Source: Acidiferrobacteraceae bacterium
GTDB lineage: Bacteria > Pseudomonadota > Gammaproteobacteria > HyVt-429
DNA: 64,000 nt
Direction of reading: 5' to 3'
Assembly (NCBI GenBank): GCA_011052015.1
Contig: DRJZ01000051.1
Span: 828 to 64,827, forward strand
The notes below the pieces were generated by a model. The model did not search any database. It was given only the letters and a program-made list of their open reading frames with translations, and had not been told where the DNA came from. Shown here piece by piece: positions 212 to 16,485 of the stretch; position 1 is the stretch's first letter, and each line of letters begins with the position of its first letter. Both the position numbers and the translations under genes were made by a program.

Positions 212-532
212 ACCTTTTCTCCCTCCCGCCTGCCCCTTCTTAAACTAATGGGTACGAAAGTTATCCGGCATAATCAACTCCCGCGACTCAGCACCACCCA
301 CACCTATTGGTCCAGCGAAACCATGACCAAAGCACTACAGGCGCCAAAACCCGTAGAATAATAGGACAGCACCGAAACAATAAACTGCTATCCCCTTAGC
401 GCACCCCCTCTTTCTGGATCCCGATATACCCTCTCAAAGGGGTGCTAAAATGGGCCCACCTGTGGGGAAAGGGGCAAATATAATTTCTTCTGGGTGTGAA
501 CTGGGTCACAGAATCACCACATCAAAAACGGT

Positions 533-1366
533 ATGGTAGCGGCTAACAGAAGATGGGAAGACATTGAAAGTCTTGACAAACGCGGGGAACATAAACAGCG
601 TCAAAACCCCACGTGGGATGGCAACGATGAGGGCACTAAGATGCATCTAACAAATGGCACTATCGATCCCAAGAGATCGTTGGCCTGGCGCCACGCCGTG
701 TCGGCACTAATCGTGACGCTGCTCAGCCTTGGCAGTTCTTCGGCCATAGCAGAATCGACCTCTATAGGGCGCGTCTTGACCGGAGACATTACAGCCACTG
801 GCAAAGATCGGCCAATACAGACCCGAAAAGTTGTCGGCGGTGAGGCATTTGTGAGTGGCGAGACCCTCACCACCCAAGATAAACACGCGGTGATCGGCTT
901 TAATGACGGCACCAAGATGACCCTGCGCGCTCACACCGAGTTGGTCATCACCTCATACCGCTATGGCTATGGCCAGGGTGAGGCCCTGTTCAGCCTGAAC
1001 AAAGGCGGCATAAGAGTTTCCACGGGCAAGATCGCAGAAAACAATCCATCAAAGTTTCGCGTTAGTACGCCCTACGGTGATCTTGCCCTGCCCGACCCCT
1101 ATGCCAAGGGTCTGGCCTGTGCCGAGGGATGCGACTACGACGCCGGTCGACCCAAGGGCCCTGACACCTCAGCCGGGCATGTGGCCTTTTGTAAAGGCAA
1201 AGTCACAATTACGCGGAAAGATCACCCCCCCACTGCAATCAAGGCCGGCGATCAACTTGAAAGGGGTAATACCATAGCGGTCGGTCGCAATGGGCTTGCG
1301 GTACTGGCACTCACCGATGGCCAGCGAAGAACCCTCAAGCCCAACGAAAGCTATACCATCAGATAG
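533..1366 (+). CDS. FecR-domain secreted protein
   Basis: Signal-peptide-like segment (SLAWRHAVSALIVTLLSLGSSSAIA) followed by a FecR-type beta-rich motif (VVGGEAFVSGETL...GTKMTLRAHTELVI...GEALFSLNKGGIRVSTGKI); probable true start at the internal ATG near 641 (MHLTNG...). Confidence 0.5.
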   Translation: MVAANRRWEDIESLDKRGEHKQRQNPTWDGNDEGTKMHLTNGTIDPKRSLAWRHAVSALIVTLLSLGSSSAIAESTSIGRVLTGDITATGKDRPIQTRKVVGGEAFVSGETLTTQDKHAVIGFNDGTKMTLRAHTELVITSYRYGYGQGEALFSLNKGGIRVSTGKIAENNPSKFRVSTPYGDLALPDPYAKGLACAEGCDYDAGRPKGPDTSAGHVAFCKGKVTITRKDHPPTAIKAGDQLERGNTIAVGRNGLAVLALTDGQRRTLKPNESYTIR

Positions 1367-1544
1367 GTTACCCGGTAGACGGAATGACCATGTTCGGTCG
1401 ACCTGGAAGGTTTCAACCTAAGCTTGGGCCGTGTCTAAATCTAATGGCCTTAAATCTACTCCATCTAATTGAGACCAACATTATTATCGAAATTACTGGC
1501 TTATGAAGTTAAAATAAAACAAAAATCTGGGAGGAGATCTTACT

Positions 1545-2690
1545 ATGGCGTCCAACCGCGACAAAGCGAAAAATATTAATCACTGCCACGCCATCATACT
1601 TGCACTTAGTCTAATAGCCTGGGGACATCCGGCATGGAGTCAAAGTGATGCCAAATACAGCGCACAAATATATAAAAAAAACTGTGCCGCCTGCCATGAC
1701 ACGGGTAATGCCGGTGCACCCCCTCTTAGTGATGCAGGCAATTGGGATAACCGTCTCAGTTGGCCCCGCTGGGTCACCAACCGGCGCGTGATTAATGGCT
1801 ATGGCACCATGCCCCCCCGTGGCGGCAATAATGCCCTGTCAGACCAAGACGTCAAGGATGCGGTGACCTACATGATCGCGCGTATAGAAGCGGGGCCACA
1901 AAAAGAAGCCGAAAACCCAAAAAAGACATCTCGCCGCAACAAAAATAAAGCAACGCCAAACAATGGCAAGTATCACAAACCACCGCAAAACCGGGAAACG
2001 CCCAAAGACAGCTACGGGGATGAGGTCCGCCTGGGCAAGAAGATTTTCACCCAAACCTACAAATATGCGCGTCGCTATGTCGGCAATGAAATGAGTTGTG
2101 CCAACTGTCACCTGGATGCGGGCCGCAAGCCCAATGCCGCCCCGATGTGGGCGGCCTATGGTATGTATCCCGCCTATCGACGCAAAAATGATCGCACCAA
2201 CACCCTGCAAGAACGCATCCAACAATGTTTCCGGTTTAGCTTAAACGGTATTTCACCGGCCCTGGACGCACCGGAACTACGCGCACTCACGAGCTATATG
2301 CATTTTATTTCCAAAGGTGTACCCGTAGGGGTAAACATGCCAGGACGCGGTTACCCGCAAATCAAAAAGACCGGATTTGACCCCAACCCCGCTCGAGGCG
2401 AAACGGTTTATAAAACCAGATGCACATCCTGTCATGGCTCGAACGGTAAAGGCAAAAATAGGCCCGGCGGAGGCTATATCTACCCTCCCCTCTGGGGCGG
2501 TGATTCATACAACAAAGCCGCCGACATGTATCAGATTAAACATCTGGCTGGGTTCATCAAGACCAACATGCCTAAAGATCAGGAAGGGTCTCTGAGCGAC
2601 CAGCAAGCCCTGGACGCCGCCGCCTATATCAACACCCAACTGCGGCCCGGGGACCCCCGTAAGGGCCTCATCCAGAGCCTGTTTGACTGA
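1545..2690 (+). CDS. tsdA: Triheme c-type cytochrome: N-terminal cytochrome c5-like domain fused to TsdA-like diheme thiosulfate dehydrogenase
   Basis: GGAGGAG RBS 7 nt before ATG 1545; signal peptide; three CXXCH motifs (CAACH, CANCH, CTSCH); c5-like N-domain (NCAACHD...GAPPL...GYGTMPPRGG...DVKDAVTYMI); C-terminal part has TsdA-like features (Cys 39 residues after first heme His, PPLWGGDSYNKAADM after second heme); stop TGA 2688-2690 overlaps next ATG. Confidence 0.6.
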   Translation: MASNRDKAKNINHCHAIILALSLIAWGHPAWSQSDAKYSAQIYKKNCAACHDTGNAGAPPLSDAGNWDNRLSWPRWVTNRRVINGYGTMPPRGGNNALSDQDVKDAVTYMIARIEAGPQKEAENPKKTSRRNKNKATPNNGKYHKPPQNRETPKDSYGDEVRLGKKIFTQTYKYARRYVGNEMSCANCHLDAGRKPNAAPMWAAYGMYPAYRRKNDRTNTLQERIQQCFRFSLNGISPALDAPELRALTSYMHFISKGVPVGVNMPGRGYPQIKKTGFDPNPARGETVYKTRCTSCHGSNGKGKNRPGGGYIYPPLWGGDSYNKAADMYQIKHLAGFIKTNMPKDQEGSLSDQQALDAAAYINTQLRPGDPRKGLIQSLFD

Positions 2691-5539
2691 TGAACGCCAT
2701 GACGCAAACTATGATGCAAAAATTCTTCCCCTTTATGCAGTGGCTACCCTCTCTTGGGCAGACCACCCTGCGCCCGGACATGGAGGCGGGGTTCGTCGGT
2801 GCGATTTTGATCCTGCCCCAGGCCATCGCCCTGGCCACCCTCGCCGGTATGCCTCCGGAGTACGGTATCTATACCAGCATCTTCCCGGTCATCATTGCCA
2901 TGTTTTGGGGGTCATCATGGCATACCCTGTCCGGGCCCAATACGGCAGTCTGTGTGCTGATTGCATCATCGGTGGCCCCCTTCGCCGCCATCGGCAGCGA
3001 ACAATATATTGGCTTTGTGCTCGCACTGACATTCATGGCCGGTGCAATACAGTTAGCGGTAGGAAGCCTGCGCTTAGGGGCCATACTCGATTTCGTGTCC
3101 CACACAGTAATCTCCGCCATTGTGCTGGCGGTGGGCCTGATCATCATTGTATTTGCGGCCAACGCCCTGCTGGGGGTGTTAAGCAATCTGGACGAACCCT
3201 TTTATATTCGGCTTCACCAGATCATCCACGATATCCCCCGGGCCAATGGCTATGCCCTGTTGGTGGGAGGGCTCACCATTATCTCCGGCTTGGTAGCACG
3301 GCATTACTGGCGACGTTACTCCCTGGTCATTGCCGTGGCCGTGGGCATGTTGTCGGCGGGGGTCATCAACCTGCTTATGGGCTCGGCCTCCAGCGAACTG
3401 GAACTGCTCGGTACCCTCAGCATATCTGCGTTACCCTTTTCCGCCCCCTCCTTCGACCTGGGTTCCATGGCGGTGCTCAAGGAACTGGTAGCCAGCGCCC
3501 TCTCTATCGCCTTTCTGGGCCTGATGCAGACCATCGTAATCTCGCGTTCCATTGCCGCCAAATCTGGTCAACTTATCGAGACCAACCAAGAGATTATTGG
3601 CCAGGGCCTGGCCAATCTGGTGGCGCCCTTTGTTTCCAGCTTCGCGGGCTCCGGTTCCTTCAATCGTAGCGCCGCACACTACGATGCCGGCGCCAAGACA
3701 CCCATGGCCGCAGTTTATGCGTCGCTCTTTTTGCTGTTAGTGGTGCTCATCGCCACCAAACTGATTGCCTACATCCCCCTGGCCGCTGTGGCCGGCGCCC
3801 TGATTTTAGTCGGCATCGGCCTCATTGATGTTAAAGAAATCAAACAGGTGTTGCGCTCACGCCAAGAAGCGGTCATCTTCTTTATGACCTTCATCAGCTC
3901 CCTGGTCCTGGGACTGAATGCCGGTGTCTTTATTGGCGTACTGCTATCACTGGTAATCTATCTTTGGTACGCCTCTACACCCAATATTGTACTCGAAGAA
4001 CAGACCGCTCGGGACGGGCGACGGGTGAACATCATCACCGTCGATGGCGGCCTGTTTTTTGGTTCGGTACGCCACGTTGAACGGGTGCTCGCAAATCTAG
4101 GCGAAAGAGACGGCTATGATGGCAATCTGATCATCAGAACAGACCATATGACCTACATGGATGTTCCTGGCGCGGCACTGATCGCTGCTGAGGCTAAACG
4201 GCGCCGACAGCACAATGGTCACTTGTATATCTTTGTTACCCAACAAAAAATATCGGATGCACTTGGTCAATCCACCTTCTTTGATGAATTTGGTAAGGAT
4301 CACATTATAGAACGCAATCAAGACCACCCTATGAAAGATGTGTTATACCCCTCAAGAATAAAAAAACCCGCCAGTAGCACACAGACTAATGGCTCTGAAA
4401 AAAAAACCAATTCCCTATCACAATCTCACTCTAAAGATTTAAATGAAACTGCGACATTGGCCTCAAGCTTACAAAACACAAAACTCTTTTCCTTGCTCAA
4501 TACAGAACAAATCGAAACTTTGCTTAAAGACTCACCTATACAACATGGCAACACCGGCACCATCATCACCGATCCCGAAACTCCCATGTCCGGACACTTT
4601 GTGTTGTTGGAGGGTCGCGTTGATATCGAGCGCCTGTGGTCACTCCCTAAAGGTGGCGCCAAACGTACTAGCAGTATCATGGACCCCAATCAGGAAAATT
4701 CGGGTATCGCTATTCTACAGGCTTCGGGTCATGGTGTGCGCATCACCGCTAATGGTGTGATCACCTACCTTTTTATTGACTGCGAAAAGTTTGACTCACT
4801 TTTGGGCTGGAACCAACAACTTGCCGATATGGCCGAAACTGACCCGGAAATATCACGCCGCATGTCCCTTATAAAACATGCCGCTCTATTCCGCCAGCTT
4901 CCCCTGGAAAACCTCAAACAGGCCCTACAAAGCATGACTCCCCGGGACGTAAAGGGAGGAGAAACCATTGTACGCCAAGGTGAAACCGGTACTAGCTATT
5001 TCTTGATTGAGAGCGGTGAAGCCGGTGTGTGGAAAAAAGACACCTTTAGCGATGATACGGTCTACGCCAATACCATCGCGCCTGCGGCGCGCTTGGGTCC
5101 GGGGGAAGGCTTTGGTGAAGAGGCCTTGTTACAAAATGGCTTTCGAAGCGCTACTGTAATGATGACCACGCCGGGCCGGTTACTGGTGATGGACAAGCAG
5201 CACTTTGACGCCCACATCCGACCCTCGTCCATTAAAATGATTAGTCCCAGCGAGGCCATCAGATTTATCAAGGATAGCAAGGTGCAGTGGCTCGACTGCC
5301 GGTACGATCTGGAATATTCCGAAGCCCACATCCCCAATGCCTTGCATGTACCGTTAGATCAACTAAGGGAACAGCTTGCAGGCCTTGATCGCACCAAGCC
5401 ATGCATCGTTTATAGCCGCAATGAGCGCCGCAGCCGTGCAGCTGCGTTTTTGCTCACGGAACATAACTTCAACATCAAGGTACTGAAAGGCGGAATTATG
5501 CATTGGCCTTACGATCTCGAAGATGGAAAAACCGGGTAA
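2690..5539 (+). CDS. SulP-family anion transporter with STAS domain fused to two cNMP-binding-like domains and a C-terminal rhodanese-homology domain (catalytic Cys replaced by Ser)
   Basis: N-terminal SulP permease hydrophobic core (EAGFVGAILILPQAIALATLAGMPPEYGIYTS...), STAS-like region (VNIITVDGGLFFGSVRHVERV...), S/T/K-rich linker, canonical cNMP phosphate-binding cassette (FGEEALLQNGFRSATV), rhodanese fold ending PCIVYSRNERRSRAAAF (Ser where the active-site Cys is expected). Confidence 0.8.
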   Translation: MNAMTQTMMQKFFPFMQWLPSLGQTTLRPDMEAGFVGAILILPQAIALATLAGMPPEYGIYTSIFPVIIAMFWGSSWHTLSGPNTAVCVLIASSVAPFAAIGSEQYIGFVLALTFMAGAIQLAVGSLRLGAILDFVSHTVISAIVLAVGLIIIVFAANALLGVLSNLDEPFYIRLHQIIHDIPRANGYALLVGGLTIISGLVARHYWRRYSLVIAVAVGMLSAGVINLLMGSASSELELLGTLSISALPFSAPSFDLGSMAVLKELVASALSIAFLGLMQTIVISRSIAAKSGQLIETNQEIIGQGLANLVAPFVSSFAGSGSFNRSAAHYDAGAKTPMAAVYASLFLLLVVLIATKLIAYIPLAAVAGALILVGIGLIDVKEIKQVLRSRQEAVIFFMTFISSLVLGLNAGVFIGVLLSLVIYLWYASTPNIVLEEQTARDGRRVNIITVDGGLFFGSVRHVERVLANLGERDGYDGNLIIRTDHMTYMDVPGAALIAAEAKRRRQHNGHLYIFVTQQKISDALGQSTFFDEFGKDHIIERNQDHPMKDVLYPSRIKKPASSTQTNGSEKKTNSLSQSHSKDLNETATLASSLQNTKLFSLLNTEQIETLLKDSPIQHGNTGTIITDPETPMSGHFVLLEGRVDIERLWSLPKGGAKRTSSIMDPNQENSGIAILQASGHGVRITANGVITYLFIDCEKFDSLLGWNQQLADMAETDPEISRRMSLIKHAALFRQLPLENLKQALQSMTPRDVKGGETIVRQGETGTSYFLIESGEAGVWKKDTFSDDTVYANTIAPAARLGPGEGFGEEALLQNGFRSATVMMTTPGRLLVMDKQHFDAHIRPSSIKMISPSEAIRFIKDSKVQWLDCRYDLEYSEAHIPNALHVPLDQLREQLAGLDRTKPCIVYSRNERRSRAAAFLLTEHNFNIKVLKGGIMHWPYDLEDGKTG

Positions 5540-5609
5540 GTTGAAGCCGGAGATTATTTGACACCATACTGAAGCAGCCTGGCATTAACAAAAAAAGGGG
5601 GCAACCCAG

Positions 5610-6704
5610 ATGAAAAAACTACTCAATCGACTCAAAGCGGAAAAGCTGTTTTCAATGCTGACCGAAAAACAGCTCCACACAGTCCTGGAACACAGCAAAA
5701 TCTGCAATGCCGAGGCCGGAGACGTGGTTTTCCCTCCTGACGAACCCATCACCCACTATCTCGTTATTGTTGATGGCGAACTTGGCTGTGAACGCCAATA
5801 CACCAACGCCGACGGCCAACAAGAATTCCGCCGCAGGGTACTGAAGGGCTGCGAGGCAGAGGGTGAGATCGCTGTACTCACCGCTGCGGGTCGCGGTTGC
5901 ACCGCGAGCGCCTTAACTCCTCTACGCTACATGCTGATCGAAGGCGATCTGATCGACGTATTTCTCGGCTGGAACCAGCAAGTGTCCCGCGCCATCGTCA
6001 ATGACCCTGAACTCACTCACCGCGCCAAGCTCGTTAAACAGGTCAACGTCTTTCATCAATTGCCCCTGGAAAACATCCAAGCGGCCTTCAAACGCATGTC
6101 AACAATTGAAGTGGGTGCCGGAAACACCGTGGTCAACGAGGGGGATTCCGGGGACTGCTACTATGTGATCGAAACCGGCACCGCAGAAGTATGGCGAACC
6201 GATCCCTTCACCGACGAAACCAAACTGGTTGCAGAATTTGGCCCTGGAGACGCCTTTGGGGAAGAGGCCTTGCTGCAAAATGCCCTGCGCAATGCCACCG
6301 TTAAAATGACATCGCCGGGGAGCTTGCTGGTACTCCAAAAATCCGACTTTGATGAATTGGTGCAACCCAAGTTTCTCCAGGAAGTCGAGGCCGATGTTGC
6401 CCGGGATATGGTCGATCAGGGCAAGGCAAAATGGCTGGACTGCCGGTACGAAATGGAATACGAAGAATCTCGCATACCCAATGCCCCCCTCATCCCCCTG
6501 GACCGCATTCGAGAAAACACCCATAAGCTGGATTCCGACTCCACCTACATCGTCTACTGCCGTAGCGGTCGGCGCAGCAAGGCAGGGGCATTCTTGCTGC
6601 GCGAGCGAAATATTAAGGCCCTGTCCATGATTGGAGGCATCGCTAACTGGCCTTTTGAAATCGATGCCGAAGCCATAGATTTAACCGATACCCACACCAC
6701 GTAA
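5610..6704 (+). CDS. Standalone tandem cNMP-binding-domain / rhodanese-domain protein (paralog of the C-terminal module of the upstream SulP fusion), active-site Cys present
   Basis: AAGGGGG RBS before ATG 5610; FGEEALLQNALRNATV phosphate-binding cassette; rhodanese loop YIVYCRSGRRSKAGAF (CRxGxR type); about 45-50% aa identity to residues ~600-949 of the 2690..5539 protein. Confidence 0.75.
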   Translation: MKKLLNRLKAEKLFSMLTEKQLHTVLEHSKICNAEAGDVVFPPDEPITHYLVIVDGELGCERQYTNADGQQEFRRRVLKGCEAEGEIAVLTAAGRGCTASALTPLRYMLIEGDLIDVFLGWNQQVSRAIVNDPELTHRAKLVKQVNVFHQLPLENIQAAFKRMSTIEVGAGNTVVNEGDSGDCYYVIETGTAEVWRTDPFTDETKLVAEFGPGDAFGEEALLQNALRNATVKMTSPGSLLVLQKSDFDELVQPKFLQEVEADVARDMVDQGKAKWLDCRYEMEYEESRIPNAPLIPLDRIRENTHKLDSDSTYIVYCRSGRRSKAGAFLLRERNIKALSMIGGIANWPFEIDAEAIDLTDTHTT

Positions 6705-6878
6705 CCCTGAGTCATTCGACCGCCTCATGGAAAAACTCTTTGCTCTACTGCTAATCAAAAGACACGAACGAGGCCATGTGCTCTATTTTGTGTTGGTCTA
6801 CCTATTGCTCGGGGTCGGTATGGCGCTGGGTCGGGGCACGGGAGTTGTCCGACAGTAAGCATGCAATTTAAGCCAGCG

Positions 6879-9275
6879 CTAGATTACAGCCGCACTATTG
6901 CTGCCTTTTTCCCGGAGTCGTGCAAAAGCGATGAAAGCCGCCATATAGATGACCAGCGCTATCAGAAATAATAATTTAAATCCGATATATAGCGTCAACA
7001 CAACGCTCAGGACTCCTCCAATTACGGTAAACAGACCGTTCATGCCCCATGCCCATGGTATGGCGCCTTTTGGTTGATCCTGGATCGCCAATATACCCAG
7101 AGGCAGAGGCATGCCCATGAATATACCCAGGGGAATTATCATTGCTAATGATATCCCGATCCTTATCCAGATGGGTTCTTGCAGGAACGTATTAAATATC
7201 CAATGGTACGAGAATAGAAAAACAATCCCTATTGTCGCTATTCCGATAAATGGCCAATACCATTTATTTTTAACATCGATACCCAATTTCTGGGCTGCCA
7301 GACTGCCTAGTCCTGCCGCCAAGAGTAATGCAAACACGACCGTCGAATAGGTGTAAAGTGGATACCCGATCAGCTTCATGAACATCTGGATAAACATTAA
7401 TTCGATAATGATGAATCCAGCCCCAAGACATGAGAAATAAATGAGAGTCGTGGTTTTGGAATTCCAATGCGCCCGCCCCGCACTTGAATAATAGAGAGGG
7501 GCAACAATAAATAACACGATAAATATTAATGATGCGTAGCTTGTGATCACCAGGTGGAATATTTCTCGTGGAATACCCAGTTTACTAAGTTGTGAATTTA
7601 ACAGCGACGCGGTTGAGTAATCCATGTAAACGCCGCTTCCAGGCATTATTTTCTCGGTACTCTTGCGGAGGAAGTTGAAGAACGGTCTATTGTCGGTAGA
7701 GGCGAAAATATTGAACGGACTTTTTTCTATCGTTTCGGGAGATAACCTGCCGCTAAAATACTCGTCTGGGAGATATCTATTTTCACCGGATAAAGGATCC
7801 TCAACCAACTCTCTCTTTGAAATGATGCTATTCATTTCCGTGACTTCTTTTTGTGTCCAGGGACTCATTTTGACCATAAATGTGGGTAGATTGTCCTGAA
7901 ACCCTTTTGTTTTGTTTTGATAAACCAAAACGTGTTGCCTGAAGCTCGTGTAACCCAGTTTTCTCCAGGCTGCGGCGGCAGTGGTAACCATGCGTGGATA
8001 TACATGGTGGTTTATTTGCAGGACGCCATCTTTCTTCAGGTGCCTGAAATACTCTATATAGGCTTCGACGGTCTGGAGATAGGTTGTCGCCATTGCTCCA
8101 TTGCCCGCCGCGATGCTTGAGCTTGTGTGGTTGCTGAATATCTGGATGATGTCGTATCTCTTATTTTCCGATCTCAGGAAGCTTCTACCTTCCCCTTTGA
8201 GGTAGTTCACATTAGGATGATTGTAGATTTGTCCATTGTATGACGCGTATTTCTTCTTACCCAGTTCCACGACATAACCGACCAGTTCGATGGCGTCGAT
8301 AGTGGCTGCACCATAGGTAAGCGCCGCTTTGACTTCCTGCCCACCGGCACTGCCGATGACGAGAACGTCCTGTTGGCTATCACGCTTGAGATAATGTGAT
8401 GCAATGACAGCCGGATGCGTAAATTGTTGCCGATAATTTGCCGGCAGCCCCTTGCGCAGTTTCTTAAAATTACCATCGAACTTGACGACAACACTTGTCT
8501 GTGACCCTCCGTCATATAGAATATCTTTTCTTGCTTCAAAACCCGCCACGTCTATCTTCGATACCGGATCCCAATGGGTCAATTCTATTTTTCCCAGTAA
8601 TCGTAGTGTCCTGATGTTCCGCTTATCGCCGTGCGCCTTAAATACGAAGTAATCGGCCGAAGACACAAAGGGTGCGACTATACATGCCGTACCAATAACT
8701 AGCGCCACGTTTCGCCATACAATGTGCTTCGCAAATAAGCCCGACGCGATAATGCAAATCCCACCCACCATAAACAATAGGCCACCTGGACCCACATATG
8801 GCAAAAATGGAATAATAGCAATGCTGCCGAGACCCGCACCGATCAGGTCCCAGAAATACAGCGTTCGGATATTCGATGCGTACTTGGAAAAAAGAATCGC
8901 AAATACACTGCCCGAGAAGAAGAACGGTAAGGCCAGCACAAAATATACTATAAGTATAAGAAACACACCCTTTTTCGGATCAGAGAATAAAATATCAAAA
9001 TCAAAGTCCAGGTAATTTAATACAGGAAGTATTACTATGCTGAAAACACCGAATGCAAAGGCCATCACAGATAATCTGAATGCCGGGTCCTTGTGTGCAG
9101 CCAGCGGCTTTAAAGATAAATATATACCTGCCAGGGCAAAGCAGAACAAGGCGAGTGTTATCACCATATACGCCATGTGCGGAGCCCACAGCGAATCAAA
9201 TATCTTAATTAAAGTTAGTTCCAGCATCAAGGTTGCGAAAGCAACCATGAACAGTGCAACCTTGGTTTTAATCAT
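6879..9275 (-). CDS. Fused MFS-like membrane domain / spermidine-synthase-like (PABS methyltransferase-fold) integral membrane protein
   Basis: Many predicted TM helices at both ends; central Rossmann/PABS-like motif (VLVIGSAGGQEVKAALTYGAATIDAIELVGYVVELGKKKY...YDIIQIF); markedly AT-rich codon usage relative to the neighbours. Confidence 0.5.
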   Translation of the reverse strand: MIKTKVALFMVAFATLMLELTLIKIFDSLWAPHMAYMVITLALFCFALAGIYLSLKPLAAHKDPAFRLSVMAFAFGVFSIVILPVLNYLDFDFDILFSDPKKGVFLILIVYFVLALPFFFSGSVFAILFSKYASNIRTLYFWDLIGAGLGSIAIIPFLPYVGPGGLLFMVGGICIIASGLFAKHIVWRNVALVIGTACIVAPFVSSADYFVFKAHGDKRNIRTLRLLGKIELTHWDPVSKIDVAGFEARKDILYDGGSQTSVVVKFDGNFKKLRKGLPANYRQQFTHPAVIASHYLKRDSQQDVLVIGSAGGQEVKAALTYGAATIDAIELVGYVVELGKKKYASYNGQIYNHPNVNYLKGEGRSFLRSENKRYDIIQIFSNHTSSSIAAGNGAMATTYLQTVEAYIEYFRHLKKDGVLQINHHVYPRMVTTAAAAWRKLGYTSFRQHVLVYQNKTKGFQDNLPTFMVKMSPWTQKEVTEMNSIISKRELVEDPLSGENRYLPDEYFSGRLSPETIEKSPFNIFASTDNRPFFNFLRKSTEKIMPGSGVYMDYSTASLLNSQLSKLGIPREIFHLVITSYASLIFIVLFIVAPLYYSSAGRAHWNSKTTTLIYFSCLGAGFIIIELMFIQMFMKLIGYPLYTYSTVVFALLLAAGLGSLAAQKLGIDVKNKWYWPFIGIATIGIVFLFSYHWIFNTFLQEPIWIRIGISLAMIIPLGIFMGMPLPLGILAIQDQPKGAIPWAWGMNGLFTVIGGVLSVVLTLYIGFKLLFLIALVIYMAAFIAFARLREKGSNSAAVI

Positions 9276-9504
9276 TCTCGCACCCTTCAGATAATAAATT
9301 CCTGATTATTTTTGTGCATTTTGAAACAATCTACGCCTACTTAATCAATGCCTGTCTCACAAGATCAAAGCCATATGACAGATAAAATTATTGGCGACGG
9401 AGTAATAAAAACTTCCTCTATCTCAATAAACTCGCTATGGTTTCCCCATAAATTTTCCTGAAGAGCCATAAAACATAACATGAATGATACTACAGACACG
9501 CTAT

Positions 9505-9550
9505 CTATGACATGCCTTTCTCTGTGAGCTCCGTGCCTCCGCGGCAAAGA
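9505..9550. repeat. Single arm of the REP-like family (TCTCTGTGAGCTCCGTGCCTCCGCGG)
   Basis: Shares the CTCTGTG..CTCCGTGCCTC core with the arms at 49767-49924 and shorter versions at 12745-12785 and 28428-28468. Confidence 0.45.
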
Positions 9551-9637
9551 GAAGGCTGTATTCATATTTGCTCACAGCATTGGGTTAAAACCCATTAAAC
9601 CCAGTTTATTAGGGGACAAGAAAAGAGGAGGTGTTGC

Positions 9638-11305
9638 ATGTTAAATATTCAAATTAGTTTTGGTAAGGCAGCGGCGATCACGGTAGGTCTTGCCCTATTG
9701 CTTTACAAGTTATGGCTGGTCGAGGTTCATGATCTCTTCATGATAGGCAGCCCCATGGATGACCTGTTTTTTGTGCGTTCCGCCCAAGAATTGCTGGCCG
9801 GTAACTGGCTGGGCCGCTATACACAATACACGCTGATGGCCGGACCGGTCTACTCCATGTGGATCGCCCTGTGCTACCTGCTCGCAGTGCCCTTACACGT
9901 GGGCCAGCAACTGCTTTATGCCGGCGCTTCCCTGGTGACGGTTCTGGCCCTGTATCCGGTGGTGAGGCATAAGGGTTGGTTGCTGCTTGCCTTCGCCTAT
10001 CTTTTATTTAACCCCTTTACCTATGACTATTCATCGTCTGCCGGCGCCTTCCGGTTGGGGATTTACCCGGCCCTTGCGTTGCTGGTAATCGGGTGCGCCA
10101 TTGGCCTATATACGCGGGCCACGGTCCCCCGGGGCAAACCGTTGCCGTGGGCCGTGGGCCTCGGGGTGGCCTTGGCGGCGTTTTGGTATACACGCGAGGA
10201 GGGTATATGGATCGTGCCGGCGTTAGTGCTTACCGGCTTGTTTGTGGCCATACACGGCCGCACCCGCGGGCAGCGCCGCTGGACCTGTATTTTAGGCTTG
10301 CTCGCGGTGCCTCTGCTGATCTGGACGGGTTCATTCCTTGCGCTTGGGTATATGAATTGGAAGCACTACGGCATCTTCACCGACCTCGAGATCAAGAGCA
10401 CCGAATTCAAGTCAGCCTATAGCGCCTTGATCAGTGTGCGCAGCAATAAACACCAACGGTACTACCTGTTGGAGGCTCCGGTGAGTACCGCTCTAATCAA
10501 GGTGAGCCCTGCGTTCCGGGAGATCAAGCTTTATGTTGGTAAACTTCCTGCCTCGGTTTTTATCTGGTCCCTGCGCGATGCGGTGCAGGCAGCCGGGTAT
10601 TATGACCATGCCGGAAACGATGATCGAAAAAATGGACCGAAGACATTGGATTTTTATAAAAGGTTGGGCGATGAGATTCACCGGGCATGCGATACGGGGC
10701 AATTGACCTGTGATCGGTTGCTGTCATCGTTTGTCCCCGCGTGGACCGAGGAGTATAACCGTGAAATCTTTCCTACCCTTTACGATGTCACCAGAAAGTT
10801 ATTGACATTTGATGGCTTCGATCCGCGCATGCTCGCGAAATGGGTCAGCAGTGATCCCTATGACACATCTTGGTTGTTTACCTATATCACCGGCGAGCGG
10901 TTGCGTACCACCGATCCGGCTGTGCTCAGCAAAGTGCCCGAGGCGCACAGAGAATTTGAGGACATGAAGACTCATCGCCTCCTGCGCATCGGCCGCGACT
11001 ACTACCAGAATCTATTGCCATGGTTGTTTTGGCCCAGCGTAGTCGTGATATTGTTGGTTGCCCTCGTGGAGGCGATCAAAAGAAGAATGTCGCAAGTGAC
11101 AGTGGCTGCATTGATCGTGTTAGCGGCCCTCGTGTCGCATATCACGATTATCTCGCTGGTCGCGATGATGTCGACATTCGCACAGCGCTATTTGTTCGCT
11201 TCCTATCCTTTTGTCATTCTGGTCGTAATCCTGAGTGCGATTATGGTAGTACGCGTTATCACCACTTTGCGCGGCGGTATTGATGACATGGGCAATAGGA
11301 CATGA
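9638..11305 (+). CDS. GT-C fold glycosyltransferase-like polytopic membrane protein (ArnT/PMT-like)
   Basis: N-terminal TM followed by a DD/E motif in the first loop (PMDDLFFVRSAQELLAGNWLG), multiple TM helices, periplasmic domain, two C-terminal TM helices. Confidence 0.4.
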   Translation: MLNIQISFGKAAAITVGLALLLYKLWLVEVHDLFMIGSPMDDLFFVRSAQELLAGNWLGRYTQYTLMAGPVYSMWIALCYLLAVPLHVGQQLLYAGASLVTVLALYPVVRHKGWLLLAFAYLLFNPFTYDYSSSAGAFRLGIYPALALLVIGCAIGLYTRATVPRGKPLPWAVGLGVALAAFWYTREEGIWIVPALVLTGLFVAIHGRTRGQRRWTCILGLLAVPLLIWTGSFLALGYMNWKHYGIFTDLEIKSTEFKSAYSALISVRSNKHQRYYLLEAPVSTALIKVSPAFREIKLYVGKLPASVFIWSLRDAVQAAGYYDHAGNDDRKNGPKTLDFYKRLGDEIHRACDTGQLTCDRLLSSFVPAWTEEYNREIFPTLYDVTRKLLTFDGFDPRMLAKWVSSDPYDTSWLFTYITGERLRTTDPAVLSKVPEAHREFEDMKTHRLLRIGRDYYQNLLPWLFWPSVVVILLVALVEAIKRRMSQVTVAALIVLAALVSHITIISLVAMMSTFAQRYLFASYPFVILVVILSAIMVVRVITTLRGGIDDMGNRT

Positions 11306-11889
11306 TGTCGGTATAGCGGGTTTAACACACAGAGCCGTCCGGCAAGTATTACACGCAACAACGGGTTACGCACCAGTGTCGGGATTGCAATGCAGGGCAA
11401 TGGCGACACAATGTTGCAATTGCGCACGCTCGTCCATACACAAAAGTTTGTTTATGCCTGGACGCGAATGGTGCAACAGGTCTATGGATATCCGGATATG
11501 CGATGGATTTGCTGTAGTGCGGGATATCCTACAGCGTACCGTGCACAGCTACCTGCCCCTACTGAATTATACCGATCGGCAGGCGACCGGTATTCGGTGC
11601 CTCAGCCTGTCCCGTTGCATCGGTAGGGTGATCAATCCTGCAGAGGACCGTTTTAGGGAGAACGATCCGGTCACCATGCGACTCCCGCTCTATGCAGCAG
11701 AGCACGAAAACGAACTATGGACGTGTTTCTTTAAGGGAAGGCTCAGTGGGGTAAAAAGAATCATCAATTAACAAAAGTGCCCATATGTCTATTACTCATG
11801 GAATAAAACTACCCCCCTATAACGTCTACTAAAGTGATTTGAAGAAACCTCACTTTCAGAAACCTCTAGGAGATAAACCCGTGACCAAG

Positions 11890-12351
11890 ATGAAACGCAG
11901 AGCATTTCTCAAGGGCAGCATGGCTGGGAGTGTGCTCGCCATAGCGGTCGGCGCCGGGCTACTGCGCCCTACCCAAGTCATGGCCAGCCAATGGCCGGAT
12001 AAGGCCTTTAAAGCACGCAACCTCGCCGATGCGGTCAACAGTCTATATGGCAGTTCAGACGTTGCGGACAGCAAAGCTATCAAGATTCGTGCGCCTTTAC
12101 AGGCAGAAAATGGCGCCAAGGTGCCAATTCAGATCCTCACCGATCTACCAGCAGAATCTATTGCCGTCTTTGTTAAGGAAAACGCCATGCCCTTGGCAGG
12201 GCGCGCCAATCTGCGCAATGCCAGTGGTTTTTTTAGTACCCGTATCAAGATGGGTAAGAGTTCCGATGTGGTCGCTGTGATCAAATCAAAAGGCAAGCTC
12301 CACTCAACCAAGCTGGCGATTAAAGTCACTGTAGGTGGTTGCGGCGGCTAA
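11890..12351 (+). CDS. soxY: SoxY sulfur-carrier protein, copy 1
   Basis: Tat-like signal MKRRAFLKG; C-terminal GGCGG swinging-arm motif; ORF track starts at 11839 but ATG 11890 (MKRRAFLKG) is the likely start. Confidence 0.85.
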   Translation: MKRRAFLKGSMAGSVLAIAVGAGLLRPTQVMASQWPDKAFKARNLADAVNSLYGSSDVADSKAIKIRAPLQAENGAKVPIQILTDLPAESIAVFVKENAMPLAGRANLRNASGFFSTRIKMGKSSDVVAVIKSKGKLHSTKLAIKVTVGGCGG

Positions 12352-12388
12352 CCCATTTCGATATTGATATTTAAAGAGGAATATAATC

Positions 12389-12706
12389 ATGGCAAGAAAG
12401 ACTAAAGTACGCACCCGCATGCAAGACGGCAAAGTCGAAGTATTGATTCTGATCACCCACCCCATGGAGACCGGCCTTCGCTCTGATAAAAAAACCAAAC
12501 AAAAGATCCCGGCCCACTTCATTCAAACCCTGGATGTCATCCTGAATGGAGAACCGGTGGCCAACGCCGAACTGGGGATAGGCATCTCTACCAACCCATT
12601 ACTGGGTTTCCGTCTCAATTCGGCGAAAACCGGTGATAAACTACAAATTAAATGGAAGGATAACAAGGGGGAGAGTGGAACCATCAACAGCAAAGTCGAT
12701 CTCTGA
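12389..12706 (+). CDS. soxZ: SoxZ, copy 1
   Basis: 105 aa, immediately downstream of soxY; about 50% identical to SoxZ copy 2 (ITHPMETGLRSDKKTKQKIPAHFIQ..., GESGTIN). Confidence 0.85.
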   Translation: MARKTKVRTRMQDGKVEVLILITHPMETGLRSDKKTKQKIPAHFIQTLDVILNGEPVANAELGIGISTNPLLGFRLNSAKTGDKLQIKWKDNKGESGTINSKVDL

Positions 12707-12830
12707 TCAAAACCTTTATTGATGTGTTACTACTCTGTATCCCCGTGTCCTCTGTGGTGAAAAATTGTGCACGGAGCACCCTGATTCCTTGGTGGCTTGA
12801 AGACGACGGTGTCCAAGGAGCAATAAGCAC

Positions 12831-13208
12831 TTACTCGTTTTCGGTCAATCGCTCGTAGTGGGATTGAAACAATATCTCCAAGTCATTGATCACCTCCATA
12901 GCCGCCCGTCCTTCCATGACATGCTGGGATACCAGGGCGGTTGATTCGTTCATAAGCTCGGTGGCGTCTATCATTGGATAGGTGATGGTAAGGCGTTGAA
13001 TGGCCTTTACCACGGTTTCTTCCCCCGGCCGTGGAATCGATAGCGGCTCCTTCACCCCAGAGTCTCTATGCACCCCACCCTCTTGAGCGTGCAAAAACTC
13101 GGCAAAATCCAGCAGGCTAGTCCGTTTGGCGTCCGTCAAACCCTGAAAGATTGCTGCCAATCGGTGACTTGGGTTCCCGCTCATCACTCTTCTTGATGTC
13201 GACATCAC
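12831..13208 (-). CDS. Hypothetical small protein, translationally abutting the LysR gene
   Basis: 125-aa ORF starting 3 nt after the LysR stop; no recognisable motif. Confidence 0.35.
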   Translation of the reverse strand: MMSTSRRVMSGNPSHRLAAIFQGLTDAKRTSLLDFAEFLHAQEGGVHRDSGVKEPLSIPRPGEETVVKAIQRLTITYPMIDATELMNESTALVSQHVMEGRAAMEVINDLEILFQSHYERLTENE

Positions 13209-13210
13209 CG

Positions 13211-14134
13211 CTAACTTGATCCCTCATCAACACCGGTCTTTTGTTTTTCACAGTGGTCGTGGGCAAAACCCATGAACTCTTCCATGGCCCGCAGACGAAA
13301 TTTTTGGCGCTGATAGACCAGGGCAAAGGGCCTGACCAACGGAGGATCGAGCTTGACCGTTGCCAATGTCCCCAGACTGATTTCCTTGCCCAAGGTGGCC
13401 TCGGAAATAATCGAAATACCGAGACCCGCTTCCACCGCACTCTTTACCGACTCTGGGCTACCAAACTCCATGGCCACATTTATCTGACTTAGGCTGATAC
13501 CATTTTGCTCGAGGTAATTTACGATAAAATCGCGCGTACCTGAACCCTCTTCCCGGCATATAAATGGATAACCAGTCAAGTCTGCCGCGCCAATCGAGAT
13601 CTGGCCCGCCAGTTCGTGACCATTGGGACAGATCAGCACTAAATTGTCGTGCCAACAGACCTCCACAACCAGATTCTTGTTGCTCACCGGTGATTCGACG
13701 ATCCCTATGTCAACCTCATTATTTTCCACCATGTGGACAATGCCTATAGAATTGGATACCCTGACGCGGATCTTGACCTCTGGAAATTGCTTCTGAAATT
13801 CTCCTAACAGAGCGGGTATCACATATTCTGCGATCGTGGTGCTGGCCCCTATCAGCAACAGACCCATAATATCGCCAGTCAGCCGCCGTACCTCATTTTC
13901 CATTTCGTTGTACAACGCGATAATACGGTCGGCATATTGGTAGACCTGCTCACCGGCATCGGTCAGGTTAATCTTGTTGTGGGTACGATCAAACAGGCGG
14001 GTATTGAAGTATTCTTCCAACTGCCGGATCTGAAATGTAACCGCCGGCTGGGTCATGTGCAAAGAATCCGCCGCCTTAGTAAAACTCAGCAAGCGGGCGA
14101 CGGTATAAAAAACCTGTAGGCGGCGATCAGCCAT
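13211..14134 (-). CDS. LysR-family transcriptional regulator
   Basis: N-terminal wHTH (LQVFYTVARLLSFTKAADSLHMTQPAVTFQIRQLEEYFNTRLFDR) and LysR substrate-binding domain. Confidence 0.85.
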   Translation of the reverse strand: MADRRLQVFYTVARLLSFTKAADSLHMTQPAVTFQIRQLEEYFNTRLFDRTHNKINLTDAGEQVYQYADRIIALYNEMENEVRRLTGDIMGLLLIGASTTIAEYVIPALLGEFQKQFPEVKIRVRVSNSIGIVHMVENNEVDIGIVESPVSNKNLVVEVCWHDNLVLICPNGHELAGQISIGAADLTGYPFICREEGSGTRDFIVNYLEQNGISLSQINVAMEFGSPESVKSAVEAGLGISIISEATLGKEISLGTLATVKLDPPLVRPFALVYQRQKFRLRAMEEFMGFAHDHCEKQKTGVDEGSS

Positions 14135-14334
14135 GAAATATCACCCCGATGGAAAGGTCATGAGTTTTGCTTATCGGGATGCCAAATACAAGAAAAAAAA
14201 GCGGTCGGGCCTATTTTTTTGCTCTTCAGGATATTGTGGATCCTTCATTAAAGAATAATGGACCTCGCAAAGACATCAAGCCCGCAAAGTCAGAGGTTCC
14301 TTACATTCTTTGCCTCTTTTCTCTACAACTAAAA

Positions 14335-15453
14335 CTAAAACCCGTCCAGCTTCAAGCGTAGATCCGTTGGACTACTGGCATGGTCGAGGGCCACCTCTTC
14401 GCTGATTTCACCCTGGCGGCACAACGTAAAAAGGCTCTCATCGAAGGACAACATGCCCTCTCCCAAACTGCCCTTTTTGATCATATCGTTGATTTCCTTG
14501 CCTTTGAGGGGATCCAGGATGAGTTCACGAATCAAGGCAGACACGGTCATCACCTCCGTGGCCACAACCCGTCCTTCGCCGCTGTGACGGGGCAATAGAC
14601 GCTGGGCCACGACAGCATACAAGTTTTGTGCAATTTTGGAGCGTATGGTGGGCTGTGCCGCTGCTGGAAACACCGAGATCATACGAGTGATTGTCTCTGC
14701 CGCTGCCGGTGCGTGCAGGGTGGTGAAAACCAGGTGGCCCGTTTCGGCTGCGGTGAGCGCAATCTCCATGGTTTCATAATCGCGCATCTCACCCAGCAAT
14801 ATGACATCCGGGTCCTCGCGCAAGGTGGCGCGCATGGCGCCGGCAAAATTATTGGCGTCCACTCCAATTTCACGTTGCGAGATAATGGAGCGTCGTTCTG
14901 TAAACAAAAATTCAACGGGATCTTCGATGGTCAGTATGTGCTTGGCGTATTTGTCATTAATCTCATTAATCAACGACGCCAGAGAAGTAGATTTACCCGA
15001 CCCCGTGGCGCCAGTGAAAATGACCAAACCCCGCTCCAGATCCACAAGACGGTTTACAATATCGGGTAACTTCAGCTCATCGGGTTTTGGAACCTCGGTG
15101 TTGATGACCCGCAAAGCCATAGCAATAGAACCGCGTTGGTAATACACATTAACCCGGACCCGGCCAATGCCCTTCAAACCAATAGACAGGTCCACCTGGT
15201 AGTCTTCCTGAAACTGATCCCAGTGACTAGGCGCCATAATGGTCTGGGCCAACTCTTCCATGAAGGTCAAACTCAACATGGGATACTCATTAACCGGCCG
15301 CAATACTCCATCGACCCGGAGAATGGGAGGCGCCTTGGTCCGCAGATGAATATCCGACGCCTTCTCACGGTTGGCGTGATCCAGAATCGCACTGAGGAAT
15401 CGCAGCGGGTTGCCTAATTGGGCGGCGGCCTGCGGGTTACTTGCTTCAGCCAT
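14335..15453 (-). CDS. pilU: PilT/PilU-family type IV pilus retraction ATPase (PilU-like)
   Basis: Walker A GATGSGKST, ILTIEDPVEF, Asp box, LGEMRD, His box TGHLVFTTLHA; C-terminal DLRLKLDGF resembles PilU. Confidence 0.8.
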   Translation of the reverse strand: MAEASNPQAAAQLGNPLRFLSAILDHANREKASDIHLRTKAPPILRVDGVLRPVNEYPMLSLTFMEELAQTIMAPSHWDQFQEDYQVDLSIGLKGIGRVRVNVYYQRGSIAMALRVINTEVPKPDELKLPDIVNRLVDLERGLVIFTGATGSGKSTSLASLINEINDKYAKHILTIEDPVEFLFTERRSIISQREIGVDANNFAGAMRATLREDPDVILLGEMRDYETMEIALTAAETGHLVFTTLHAPAAAETITRMISVFPAAAQPTIRSKIAQNLYAVVAQRLLPRHSGEGRVVATEVMTVSALIRELILDPLKGKEINDMIKKGSLGEGMLSFDESLFTLCRQGEISEEVALDHASSPTDLRLKLDGF

Positions 15454-15614
15454 GTCCTATCCTTTATTGCTCTGAGCTCAGCCTGGATACTACCCCATAG
15501 CATTGCTGAATTCAGATAAAAGACCGCAGTTCAAAATATTCGCGTCTGGAAAGGCGCTCCTCCAAGGGGGAAAAATACCCTGGCCCCTACAGAAGCGAGC
15601 TCACGATCAAACTA

Positions 15615-15732
15615 AAGAAATTCTGATCAATTGAACTTGAACCGCCAAGATGCCAAGAATTTTCTTTATAAAAACCAACAATCTATTAGCTTGGCGACCT
15701 TGGCGGTTTGAGCGCATTAATCAGAGGTTCCC
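15615..15732 (+). mobile_element. MITE-like element copy 1 (imperfect 17-bp TIRs, TA target duplication, internal CGCCAAG repeats)
   Basis: TA|AAGAAATTCTGATCAAT...ATTAATCAGAGGTTCCC|TA; near-identical copies at 25352-25476 and 52660-52800. Confidence 0.6.
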
Positions 15733-15740
15733 TATAAATA

Positions 15741-15764
15741 AAAAGGGGCGCATGCGCCCCTTTG
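15741..15764. terminator. Bidirectional rho-independent terminator (GGGGCGCATGCGCCCC palindrome flanked by A/T runs)
   Basis: Perfect 16-bp palindrome 15745-15760 with AAAA upstream and TTT downstream, in the convergent gap below the 15788-16345 gene. Confidence 0.6.
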
Positions 15765-15787
15765 AATTGTAGTGTGCAGACTTTCAA

Positions 15788-16451: not shown

Positions 16452-16485
16452 TGAATTTTAAGCTAGCTGTTAAGCAGTGCCCACC

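Follow-up and report, generated by a model that had tools for sequence, protein, structure and literature searches.

Within the 64-kb stretch of Acidiferrobacteraceae DNA that we analysed (the window), a complete gene for a 798-aa protein lies at a locus with SulP, cNMP/rhodanese, GT-C and SoxYZ genes as its neighbours (Table 1). The gene product matches, at 100%, a MAG protein from Acidiferrobacteraceae that is annotated 'hypothetical protein' and carries the locus tag ENI80_02995. The ATG start codon is supported by homolog alignments, which begin at residue 1. The divergent GT-C neighbour has a host-like GC3 (0.656). We considered it as a conserved partner of the 798-aa gene and rejected it, as it was without a relative at any of 80 homolog loci. 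A 43-aa ORF at 6727-6858 was also considered, as the remnant of a truncated transporter, and was discarded with no supporting match among the fetched loci.

The spacer between the two divergent genes presumably holds the promoters of both. It had been described as AT-rich and its GC is indeed low, but the other 25 spacers span values that include it (mean GC of all 26, 0.467, sd 0.042), and three of them are at or below 0.405. Promoter-like sites were no commoner in it than in shuffled sequence. A riboswitch or structured leader was rejected for the spacer, which had no Rfam match and showed ordinary folding (z −0.62). The one weak Rfam match (E 0.11) in the scanned region falls within the gene, not the spacer.

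Table 1. Features of the locus (window positions; residue numbers refer to the 798-aa protein)
Feature	Positions	Strand	Assigned from
Complete gene, 798-aa protein (MFS fold with inserted PABS-like domain)	6879..9275	-	ORF, ATG start
Residues 1-181, N-terminal six-helix half of MFS fold	8733..9275	-	
Residues 185-204, extra transmembrane helix 7, out to inserted domain	8664..8723	-	hydropathy, DSSP, charge-bias parity
Residues 208-565, PABS-fold domain, predicted extracytoplasmic	7581..8654	-	
Residues 378-397 (Q-I-F-S-N-H-T-S-S-S-I-A-A-G-N-G-A-M-A-T), replacing PABS catalytic box and gate-keeping loop	8085..8144	-	alignments to 6qmm/1uir, residue frequencies
Residues 570-596, extra transmembrane helix 8, back from inserted domain	7488..7568	-	hydropathy, DSSP, charge-bias parity
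Residues 607-797, C-terminal six-helix half of MFS fold	6885..7457	-	
Divergent intergenic spacer, 362 bp, GC 0.395	9276..9637	.	
Divergent neighbour, 555-aa orphan GT-C-fold glycosyltransferase (ArnT/PMT-like)	9638..11305	+	

Architecture of the 798-aa protein

In the AF2 model of the protein (pLDDT 86.9, pTM 0.87), the two six-helix halves together form the 12-helix MFS fold. Fold search alone revealed this relationship: unlike known MFS transporters, the protein was not recognised by MFS sequence models, Pfam MFS_1 giving E 0.19 on the C-half and no match on the N-half. Invariant residues are found in both halves, namely the intramembrane E19, D27 and an LYFWDLxGA motif (D143) in the N-half and E625, R705 and a WAW..NG motif in the C-half. 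The C-half also weakly resembles the membrane domain of long-form SpeE (NCBIfam PRK03612). An internal duplication of the membrane halves was not accepted, as they are colinear only by eye (profile-profile E 0.07, in register 0.55). Between the halves lie helices 7 and 8, both long and of high hydrophobicity. On this model, the gene product is a 14-helix inner-membrane protein in which helices 1-6 and 9-14 make up a canonical MFS transporter, and helices 7 and 8 hold a domain of ∼360 residues, derived from the aminopropyltransferase fold, on the predicted extracytoplasmic face.

Profile scans, the AF2 model and fold search thus bear out the succession of membrane, PABS-like and membrane regions given in the preliminary description. 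Its comparison with a 'fused MFS/spermidine synthase' fits less well, as no NCBIfam model of that name matched. Like the MFS-SpdSyn-like fusions, the protein joins an MFS-type membrane domain to a SpdSyn-like domain; the fusions treated by Li et al. 2019 are said to have an apparently non-polyamine function. In contrast to these fusions and to PRK03612, the domain here is set between the MFS halves on two extra helices rather than at the C terminus, its catalytic box is altered and a motif scan saw no speD nearby. Extra central helices or large extracytoplasmic inserts occur in other MFS proteins, among them the 14-helix DHA2 transporters EmrB and QacA, the POT family with its HA-HB hairpin and SV2A, and LtaA, Spns and MHAS2168 are MFS proteins that handle lipids. 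To our knowledge, no solved MFS structure has an enzyme-fold domain in the central-hairpin loop.

Retained and lost residues of the inserted domain

The inserted domain consists of a beta-hairpin N-subdomain and a Rossmann core, the whole two-subdomain fold of PABS SpeE enzymes (T. thermophilus 1uir, T. maritima 1inl, human SpdS 2o06). All of the top 50 Foldseek matches were aminopropyltransferases, over about 300 columns, as was every significant match of the core by sequence or fold. An HMM search for Spermine_synth and MFS had been proposed earlier; it did return a weak PABS match, but Pfam Spermine_synth (PF01564) stayed at 20.4 bits, under its gathering cutoff of 22.9, and MFS_1 was not significant. 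Matches in the NCBIfam scan were limited to PRK00811, PRK03612 and speE, all far under their cutoffs (speE equivalogs, 33.8 vs 260 and 22.6 vs 249.55 bits).

Much of the nucleoside site of PABS SpeE is retained. The domain has a glycine-rich loop, an LDGxxQ-like motif (D255..Q259) and a mobile loop after strand 4. The adenosine-binding residues are present: at the ribose-binding Glu position (E330) every aligned relative has E or D, and E362-G363, part of a GEG in place of GDG, is conserved among them. E330, E362, R364 and D375 are kept down to 24% identity, and R364 is invariant in 114/114 distant relatives.

In contrast, both hallmark Asp residues are gone. In alignments to 6qmm and 1uir, the PABS GGG(D/E)G motif falls on G308-S-A-G311-G312-Q and the catalytic Asp of the D-S-S-D-P box, after strand 4, on F380. 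Position 311 was never acidic in three overlapping sets of aligned relatives (G or A in 82/82 and 80/80; G97/A16/S1 of 114), nor was position 380, which is F, Y or M in the subfamily, with F, S, V and T frequent there in distant relatives. Against solved structures, profile matches end just before the catalytic box. The acidic residue of GGG(D/E)G makes PABS enzymes selective: it recognises the amine of the aminopropyl group in dcSAM and keeps SAM out. With the dcSAM-selecting and the catalytic Asp both lost, the inserted domain is, as judged from its residues, not a spermidine synthase. The gene, a real one, therefore encodes an uncharacterised envelope protein rather than a polyamine synthase.

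What the domain has gained, relative to PABS SpeE, are two motifs invariant in the subfamily, S381-N382-H383-T-S-S (residues 381-386) and N422-H423-H424, on or beside the predicted mobile loop; residues 382-397 are the sole internal stretch with pLDDT <50 in the AF2 model. The SNH and NHH motifs are confined to the subfamily. H383 aligns with the second Asp of the PABS box, and this position is Asp in 47 of the 114 distant relatives, which suggests that the chemistry may differ across the superfamily.

Composition and origin of the gene

The gene has a GC of 0.448 (window, 0.520). None of the other ORFs with 150 or more residues is as low (47 in all; mean 0.532, sd 0.028; the gene at z about −3), and GC steps sharply at both ends (0.54 to 0.41–0.49 to 0.57–0.61). 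Windows of 2.4 kb over the gene showed the top tetranucleotide deviation in the 64 kb (0.314, next independent value 0.278). In synonymous codon use, the gene was joint most deviant when the 15 ORFs with 400 or more codons were compared; we used this length-matched comparison alone, because the all-ORF statistic, in which the gene ranks 22/46, is biased upward for short genes. The atypical composition reported before us was thus confirmed in direction, but its extent had been overstated. The third positions, called strongly A/T-biased, are unbiased (GC3 0.499, z −1.9 against a window mean of 0.584 with sd 0.044). GC3 is lower still in three ORFs, one of them a 1315-aa core YhdP homolog (0.486), and the supposedly GC-rich flanking DNA has just about 52–54% GC. 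GC1 (0.471) is the lowest in the window, and amino-acid composition accounts for part of the GC deficit.

Nonetheless, the composition deviates beyond what the protein imposes. At 65 other homolog loci, used as a control, dGC3 was +0.016 ± 0.055; the value here is −0.106, the second most extreme of 66. As copies of the family normally match the GC3 of their host, this makes horizontal acquisition plausible. A relative that is 73% identical (P0002) has a GC of 0.449 and a GC3 of 0.500 among different neighbouring genes. Mean identity was higher to the Desulfobulbales clade (52.4%) than to gamma-labelled copies (47.1%), and the other Acidiferrobacteraceae copy is a mere 46% identical to that in the window. 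In a neighbour-joining tree, the window copy grouped with P0002 and P0003 (100% and 81% bootstrap). This group joined Desulfobulbales at 52% bootstrap; in 19% of replicates it paired with the other Acidiferrobacteraceae copy instead, leaving Desulfobulbales outside. Together, dGC3, P0002 and the Desulfobulbales affinity favour the horizontal acquisition that had been proposed, whereas the weak bootstrap value, the lack of mobility signs and the GC3 tell against it. At 0.499, GC3 lies inside the distribution of ORFs in the 64-kb window, technically the kind of outcome named beforehand as refuting it. We consider it plausible that the gene was acquired from a donor of lower GC and has been partly ameliorated.

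A native gene, with low GC caused by membrane-protein amino acids, low expression or local mutational bias, is a possible but more doubtful account. The low GC1 would fit, as the family-mean GC1 is itself −0.055 relative to the flanks, and so would a GC3 within the window range, in which yhdP is lower still. No tRNA was found in positions 1-20000, and around the gene there was no integrase, transposase or flanking repeat, short repeats being at chance level; island borders were accordingly rejected, with no tRNA and no meaningful direct repeats. A cNMP/rhodanese gene also lies 4 kb from the other Acidiferrobacteraceae copy. In a metagenome scan with the cNMP/rhodanese gene that flanks the window copy, the best homologs were 46–48% identical, too distant to count as close relatives, and none had the 798-aa gene. 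Against native origin stand the dGC3, which amino acids do not explain, the abruptness of the GC step, the tetranucleotide deviation, the match in GC to P0002 despite its different context and the low identity to the copy from the same bacterial family.

Membrane sidedness, proposed function and family context

MFS termini are cytoplasmic. The family-mean K+R count was 15.6 in terminus-side loops and 1.4 in the short loops of the opposite side. The inserted domain sits on this second, K/R-poor side, the charge bias of the N-half and that of the C-half agreeing independently. By C-half parity alone, loops 8, 10 and 14, with their strong positive charge, lie on the other side of the membrane from the domain. 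From this charge bias, residues 208-565 are predicted to lie outside the cytoplasm, a further difference from PABS SpeE, whose fold is here set within a membrane protein.

Our preferred reading, to which we give a probability of about 0.45, is that the protein couples a transporter to a non-canonical module outside the cytoplasm, which transfers to or binds envelope glycoconjugates, and that the copy in the window was horizontally acquired. The MFS part, whose invariant intramembrane E19 and E625 may work as in proton-coupled exporters of cationic substrates, would pass a donor or a substrate through the inner membrane to the outer domain joined to it, which would then bind it or transfer it onto an envelope glycoconjugate. 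A single protein would thus parallel what the MBOAT plus SGNH systems, such as AlgI/AlgJ/AlgX, PatA/PatB and DltB/DltD, do in modifying polymers after export. The likeness is one of function, a donor crossing the inner membrane and then passing onto an envelope polymer; the folds are unrelated, and donor, acceptor and catalysis are putative here.

Gene neighbourhoods are consistent with an envelope role at part of the loci. Family genes often adjoin GT2, MBOAT/AlgX, SGNH and MprF-like genes, and MprF-type LPG_synthase_TM and GDSL genes recur near family members. The Desulfobulbales gene directly adjoins an MBOAT and SGNH pair, in a same-strand cluster that encodes an AsnB-like protein (nearest to the XrtA/PEP-CTERM amidotransferase), MBOAT, AlgX-like SGNH, GT2, the family protein, a 700-aa HAD protein and a polyprenyl-phosphate-hexose-type GT2. 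A GT2 gene lies within 10 kb at 26 of 77 loci by raw count, 10 of them outside the Desulfobulbales clade. No partner gene is fixed family-wide, and many loci are without envelope genes.

It is unlikely, in our view, that the domain is instead cytoplasmic and, with SAM or dcSAM, alkylates some substrate other than a polyamine, which the MFS part then exports, an idea reportedly put forward for MFS-SpdSyn-like fusions in the 2019 work of Li et al. SAM is cytoplasmic and is not known to be available outside; an intact-looking nucleoside pocket (glycine loop, E330, E362-G363 and D375) is for this reason hard to square with an outer location. In addition, the segment directly after helix 7 is basic, and DSSP of the AF2 model gives residues 133-181 as one continuous helix, which, if taken as a single helix, would change the N-half parity. 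However, parity of the C-half by itself places the domain opposite the positive loops, the two extra helices are long and very hydrophobic, and the Asp residues for dcSAM selection and catalysis are missing. An AdoMetDC processing motif was found neither in the window nor at 108 loci, weak evidence, as the regular expression was an ad hoc one.

Still less probable is a non-catalytic relic that serves in ligand binding, gating or oligomerisation on a proton-coupled MFS exporter of a cation, for example a polyamine. At ∼50% overall identity, S381-S386, G391, G393-A394 and N422-H423-H424 are extremely conserved across phyla. Such conservation in a predicted mobile surface loop typifies an active or binding site rather than a scaffold, and the constancy of R364 among distant relatives also speaks against a relic.

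A more specific form of the preferred reading, in which the MFS half moves a SAM-type donor, or a lipid-linked substrate by flipping, across the inner membrane and the outer PABS-derived domain alkylates an envelope polysaccharide or glycolipid, with His/Ser in place of Asp, is a long shot. If true, a transferase of the SAM-dependent fold would be seen outside the cytoplasm for the first time, and glycan modification after export would gain a new class alongside MBOAT/SGNH O-acylation. A canonical membrane-anchored spermidine or polyamine synthase, as some source annotations have it, is very improbable: some relatives are labelled 'spermidine synthase' by JGI and the significant matches of the core are all aminopropyltransferases, but its scores lie under the Pfam cutoff and far under those of NCBIfam, the two Asp are missing from every aligned relative, the domain is predicted to be extracytoplasmic and the AdoMetDC motif search saw no speD-like gene nearby.

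An extracytoplasmic transferase or binding module, the preferred reading, would raise the question of which donor serves a nucleoside-binding-like Rossmann domain outside the cytoplasm and how it is delivered. Paired with the orphan GT-C, the 798-aa gene suggests that this sulfur-oxidising member of the Acidiferrobacteraceae modifies its envelope in a way not yet explored. Thousands of proteins carry the labels 'spermidine synthase', 'spermidine synthase domain-containing' or 'hypothetical'; those with the architecture described here do not belong among the polyamine-biosynthesis enzymes of a metabolic reconstruction. Full-text literature searches found nothing on this protein family, which, with the source searches, agrees with the earlier statement that no member has a defined function. 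The family comprises at least 3,581 clusters or representatives at 50% identity, from many phyla and with the same architecture. Its distribution is patchy, which favours horizontal origin of the copy in the window, with 423 loci among 185,579 species genomes of many phyla, and cultured carriers include Desulfogranum marinum, Desulfofustis glycolicus and Oceanibacterium hippocampi.

Architecture and topology of the 798-aa membrane protein

The preliminary description had placed membrane regions on both sides of a PABS-like core (PABS, the aminopropyltransferase or spermidine synthase fold) in a 798-aa membrane protein. Its open reading frame (ORF), which starts with ATG, has the coordinates proposed, and the product is identical to the 'hypothetical protein' ENI80_02995 of an Acidiferrobacteraceae MAG. 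Sequence models recognise the aminopropyltransferase core alone, and weakly: the Pfam Spermine_synth model scored 20.4 bits, under its cutoff of 22.9, the NCBIfam speE equivalogs fell far under theirs, and sequence HMMs did not detect MFS. Significant matches to solved structures were aminopropyltransferases in every case, with profile alignments ending just ahead of the catalytic box. Profile comparison found no significant mutual similarity between the membrane halves. The membrane/PABS-like/membrane layout was borne out by an AlphaFold2 model from 82 relatives (pLDDT 86.9, pTM 0.87) and by Foldseek, which matched the central domain over ~300 columns with aminopropyltransferases (for example, 1uir, 7xih, 1inl and 2o06). 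We put the probability that the protein is an MFS fold with an inserted PABS fold at about 0.9.

Family-mean K+R counts were 1.09, 2.80, 1.56, 1.20, 3.35, 2.61, 1.24 and 1.72 in the loops on the termini side and 0.01, 0.41, 0, 0.94, 0.07 and 0 in the short loops opposite, and the N- and C-halves independently agree on sidedness. As MFS termini are cytoplasmic, this bias places the PABS-like domain, between helices 7 and 8, outside the cytoplasm, a sequence-based prediction that we consider likely; residues 133–181, a single helix per DSSP, are a caveat on the predicted sidedness.

Coordinates of the features (window positions unless residues or another locus are named)
Feature	Position	Strand	Size
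SoxA/TsdA-like multihaem cytochrome	1545-2690		
SulP sulfate-permease/STAS protein	2690-5539	+	949 aa
Stand-alone cNMP/rhodanese paralog	5610-6704	+	
Short ORF MEKLFALLLIKRHERGHVLYFVLVYLLLGVGMALGRGTGVVRQ	6727-6858	+	43 aa
Membrane-protein gene	6879..9275	-	798 aa
MFS fold, helices 1-6	residues 2-181		
Extra hydrophobic helix, bracketing	residues 185-204		
PABS-like domain	residues 208-565		
Extra hydrophobic helix, bracketing	residues 570-596		
MFS fold, helices 9-14 (canonical fold with helices 1-6)	residues 607-797		
Spacer	9276-9637		362 bp
GT-C gene	9638-11305		555 aa
soxYZ	from 11839		
Second most deviant tetranucleotide region	~20800-23600		
ORF inside that region	21149-21832	-	227 aa
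YhdP homolog	43195-47142	-	1315 aa
GT-C paralog cluster	L105 3580-10632		
Rokuibacteriota family member	L075 10001-12418		

Active-site residues and possible role

The active site was mapped by residue-level alignments to 6qmm and 1uir. The PABS loop GGG(D/E)G aligns to G308-S-A-G311-G312-Q, and the catalytic Asp after strand 4 aligns to F380, in a box reading I-F-S-N-H-T-S-S. In overlapping alignments of 82, 80 and 114 rows (the largest down to 24% identity), position 311 was Gly or Ala in every row but one (Ser), and position 380 was acidic in none. Adenosine-binding elements are kept (E330, E362-G363, D375 and D255..Q259), R364 is invariant, and S381-N382-H383-T-S-S and N422-H423-H424 are essentially invariant within the subfamily; position 383 is frequently Asp among distant relatives. 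PABS enzymes have a mobile gate-keeping loop, of which residues 382–397, the sole internal low-confidence segment of the model, are reminiscent. With its canonical residues replaced, the protein is a PABS derivative without the catalytic hallmarks that define aminopropyltransferases, and it is very probably not a canonical spermidine synthase.

The closest known systems are PABS enzymes, long-form membrane SpeE (NCBIfam PRK03612) and the MFS-SpdSyn-like fusions of unknown function reportedly described by Li and colleagues in 2019. Unlike in these, two extra helices hold the domain between the MFS halves, its predicted location is extracytoplasmic, and where the catalytic box would be it carries another sequence, itself conserved. 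We found no paper on the family, which gave 1,161 matches among scored candidates in a 90%-clustered database, 3,581 50%-cluster representatives at E <= 1e-30 (almost all full-length) and 423 loci across 185,579 species genomes, in Desulfobacterota, Gamma- and Alphaproteobacteria, Acidobacteriota, Nitrospirota, Ignavibacteria, Gemmatimonadota and other phyla. The architecture and active-site results open a large mis-annotated family to experiment.

No universal partner gene was found among the loci examined; envelope-glycan genes are recurring neighbours. A same-strand cluster in Desulfobulbales encodes an AsnB-like protein (nearest, the XrtA/PEP-CTERM amidotransferase), MBOAT (DltB-like), AlgX-like SGNH, GT2, the family member, a 700-aa HAD protein, a 77-aa ORF and a polyprenyl-phosphate-hexose-type GT2. 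By raw counts, GT2 lies within 10 kb of the family gene in 26/77 loci, 10 of them outside the clade with this cluster, and other recurring neighbours are genes for MprF-type LPG_synthase_TM, GDSL and additional MBOAT proteins.

The intramembrane carboxylates E19 and E625 are invariant, and we liken them to those of proton-coupled MFS exporters of cationic substrates. By this likeness, the membrane part would probably carry a donor or substrate outward, and the outer PABS-like domain might then bind it or transfer it onto an envelope glycoconjugate, by analogy with the export-then-transfer of MBOAT/SGNH pairs, one of which adjoins the family gene in Desulfobulbales. We propose such an envelope-modification role only tentatively. 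The main tension lies in the apparently intact nucleoside pocket of a predicted outer domain, as SAM is not known to occur outside the cytoplasm. This could be resolved if the transporter supplies the donor, if the pocket binds another ligand or if the topology prediction is wrong. In the last case, a possible alternative that the K+R bias speaks against, the PABS-like domain would be cytoplasmic and would alkylate a non-polyamine substrate exported by the MFS part.

Base composition and origin of the gene

An A/T-rich gene between GC-rich genes had been described. Several measures are indeed atypical: its GC of 0.448 (window, 0.520) is the lowest among 47 ORFs of >=150 aa (mean 0.532, s.d. 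0.028), and the 300-bp profile steps abruptly at both its borders, from ~0.54 (to 6850) to 0.41–0.49 over gene and spacer and 0.57–0.61 from 9700. The maximum tetranucleotide deviation in the 64 kb falls on 2.4-kb windows over the gene, and its synonymous codon use is joint most deviant among ORFs of >=400 codons. However, its third positions are unbiased rather than strongly A/T-biased (GC3 0.499; window mean 0.584, s.d. 0.044, z -1.9), three window ORFs lie lower, and the flanks are at ~52–54% GC. First codon positions (GC1 0.471) account for part of the deficit, as expected of a hydrophobic protein. One of the three ORFs is the YhdP homolog (Pfam E 3.8e-263; GC3 0.486), a core envelope gene, so low GC3 also occurs elsewhere in the genome. 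The spacer, described as an AT-rich divergent promoter region, is low in GC (0.395) but unexceptional among 26 spacers; no RNA family matched it, its folding is ordinary and promoter-like sites are not enriched over shuffled sequence. Elsewhere, the 227-aa ORF, which matched nothing in Pfam, departs furthest of all window ORFs in synonymous codon usage; it could be a spurious call or a further foreign segment.

As a control for protein effects, the family gene was set against the ORFs on either side of it in 65 other homolog-carrying genomes. The mean difference was -0.019 GC, wholly from GC1 (-0.055) and GC2 (-0.018), and +0.016 GC3 (s.d. 0.055), indicating that the family is normally compositionally matched to its host. 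The window copy differs by -0.083 GC and -0.106 GC3, second most extreme of the 66 loci. Its nearest relative (P0002, 73% identical) has the same composition (GC 0.449, GC3 0.500; flanks 0.52–0.54) and unrelated contig neighbours, a 133-aa ORF and a GMC oxidoreductase. Mean identity is 52.4% to Desulfobulbales-clade copies and 47.1% to gammaproteobacterial copies; the sole other Acidiferrobacteraceae copy is 46% identical. A neighbour-joining tree, which weakly favours horizontal origin, pairs the window copy with P0002 (100% bootstrap) and the homolog P0003 (81%), and this group joins Desulfobulbales at 52%. No tRNA, repeat or mobility gene was found at the borders, and a search for a genome close enough to show presence or absence at the locus gave flank homologs of 46–48% identity at best. 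Composition against the family norm, P0002 and the weak tree, without mobility signs, make acquisition from a lower-GC donor the somewhat likelier reading but leave it undemonstrated; the initial finding, AT-richness with horizontal acquisition, is a modest one and secure only in part.

The Rokuibacteriota family member, whose GC3 deficit against its flanks (-0.147) exceeds that of the window copy, is another candidate recent transfer. Two distinct copies on two short contigs of one Rhodospirillaceae MAG (L022 and L024) both nest in the Desulfobulbales clade, which could reflect binning contamination or transfer then duplication.

Neighbouring genes

The divergent GT-C gene, with host-like GC3 (0.656) and only 31 relatives, matched no Pfam, NCBIfam or PDB-sequence model. 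It was present beside 0/80 homologs of the membrane-protein gene, so the pairing is local. On another contig of this MAG, a paralog (73% identical) belongs to a conserved cluster, also found at loci L107 and L108, of AhpC/TSA, GT2, Polysacc_deac_1, (methyltransferase), LPG_synthase_TM (MprF-like flippase), GT-C and FemAB-like Acetyltransf_6 genes. The layout, which resembles ArnC/D/EF/T and Bordetella Lgm, suggests by analogy an undescribed lipid-linked aminosugar envelope modification.

A gap of 174 bp separates the cNMP/rhodanese gene from the 3' end of the membrane-protein gene and contains the 43-aa ORF, which one public assembly annotates. The ORF has the look of a truncated transporter N-terminus, but no match among the loci compared backed this. 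The SulP protein is fused to cNMP-binding and rhodanese domains; next comes the stand-alone paralog, in which a rhodanese domain accompanies two cNMP-binding stretches. Flanked by the multihaem cytochrome and soxYZ, these genes may form a cyclic-nucleotide-regulated sulfur-anion transport module.
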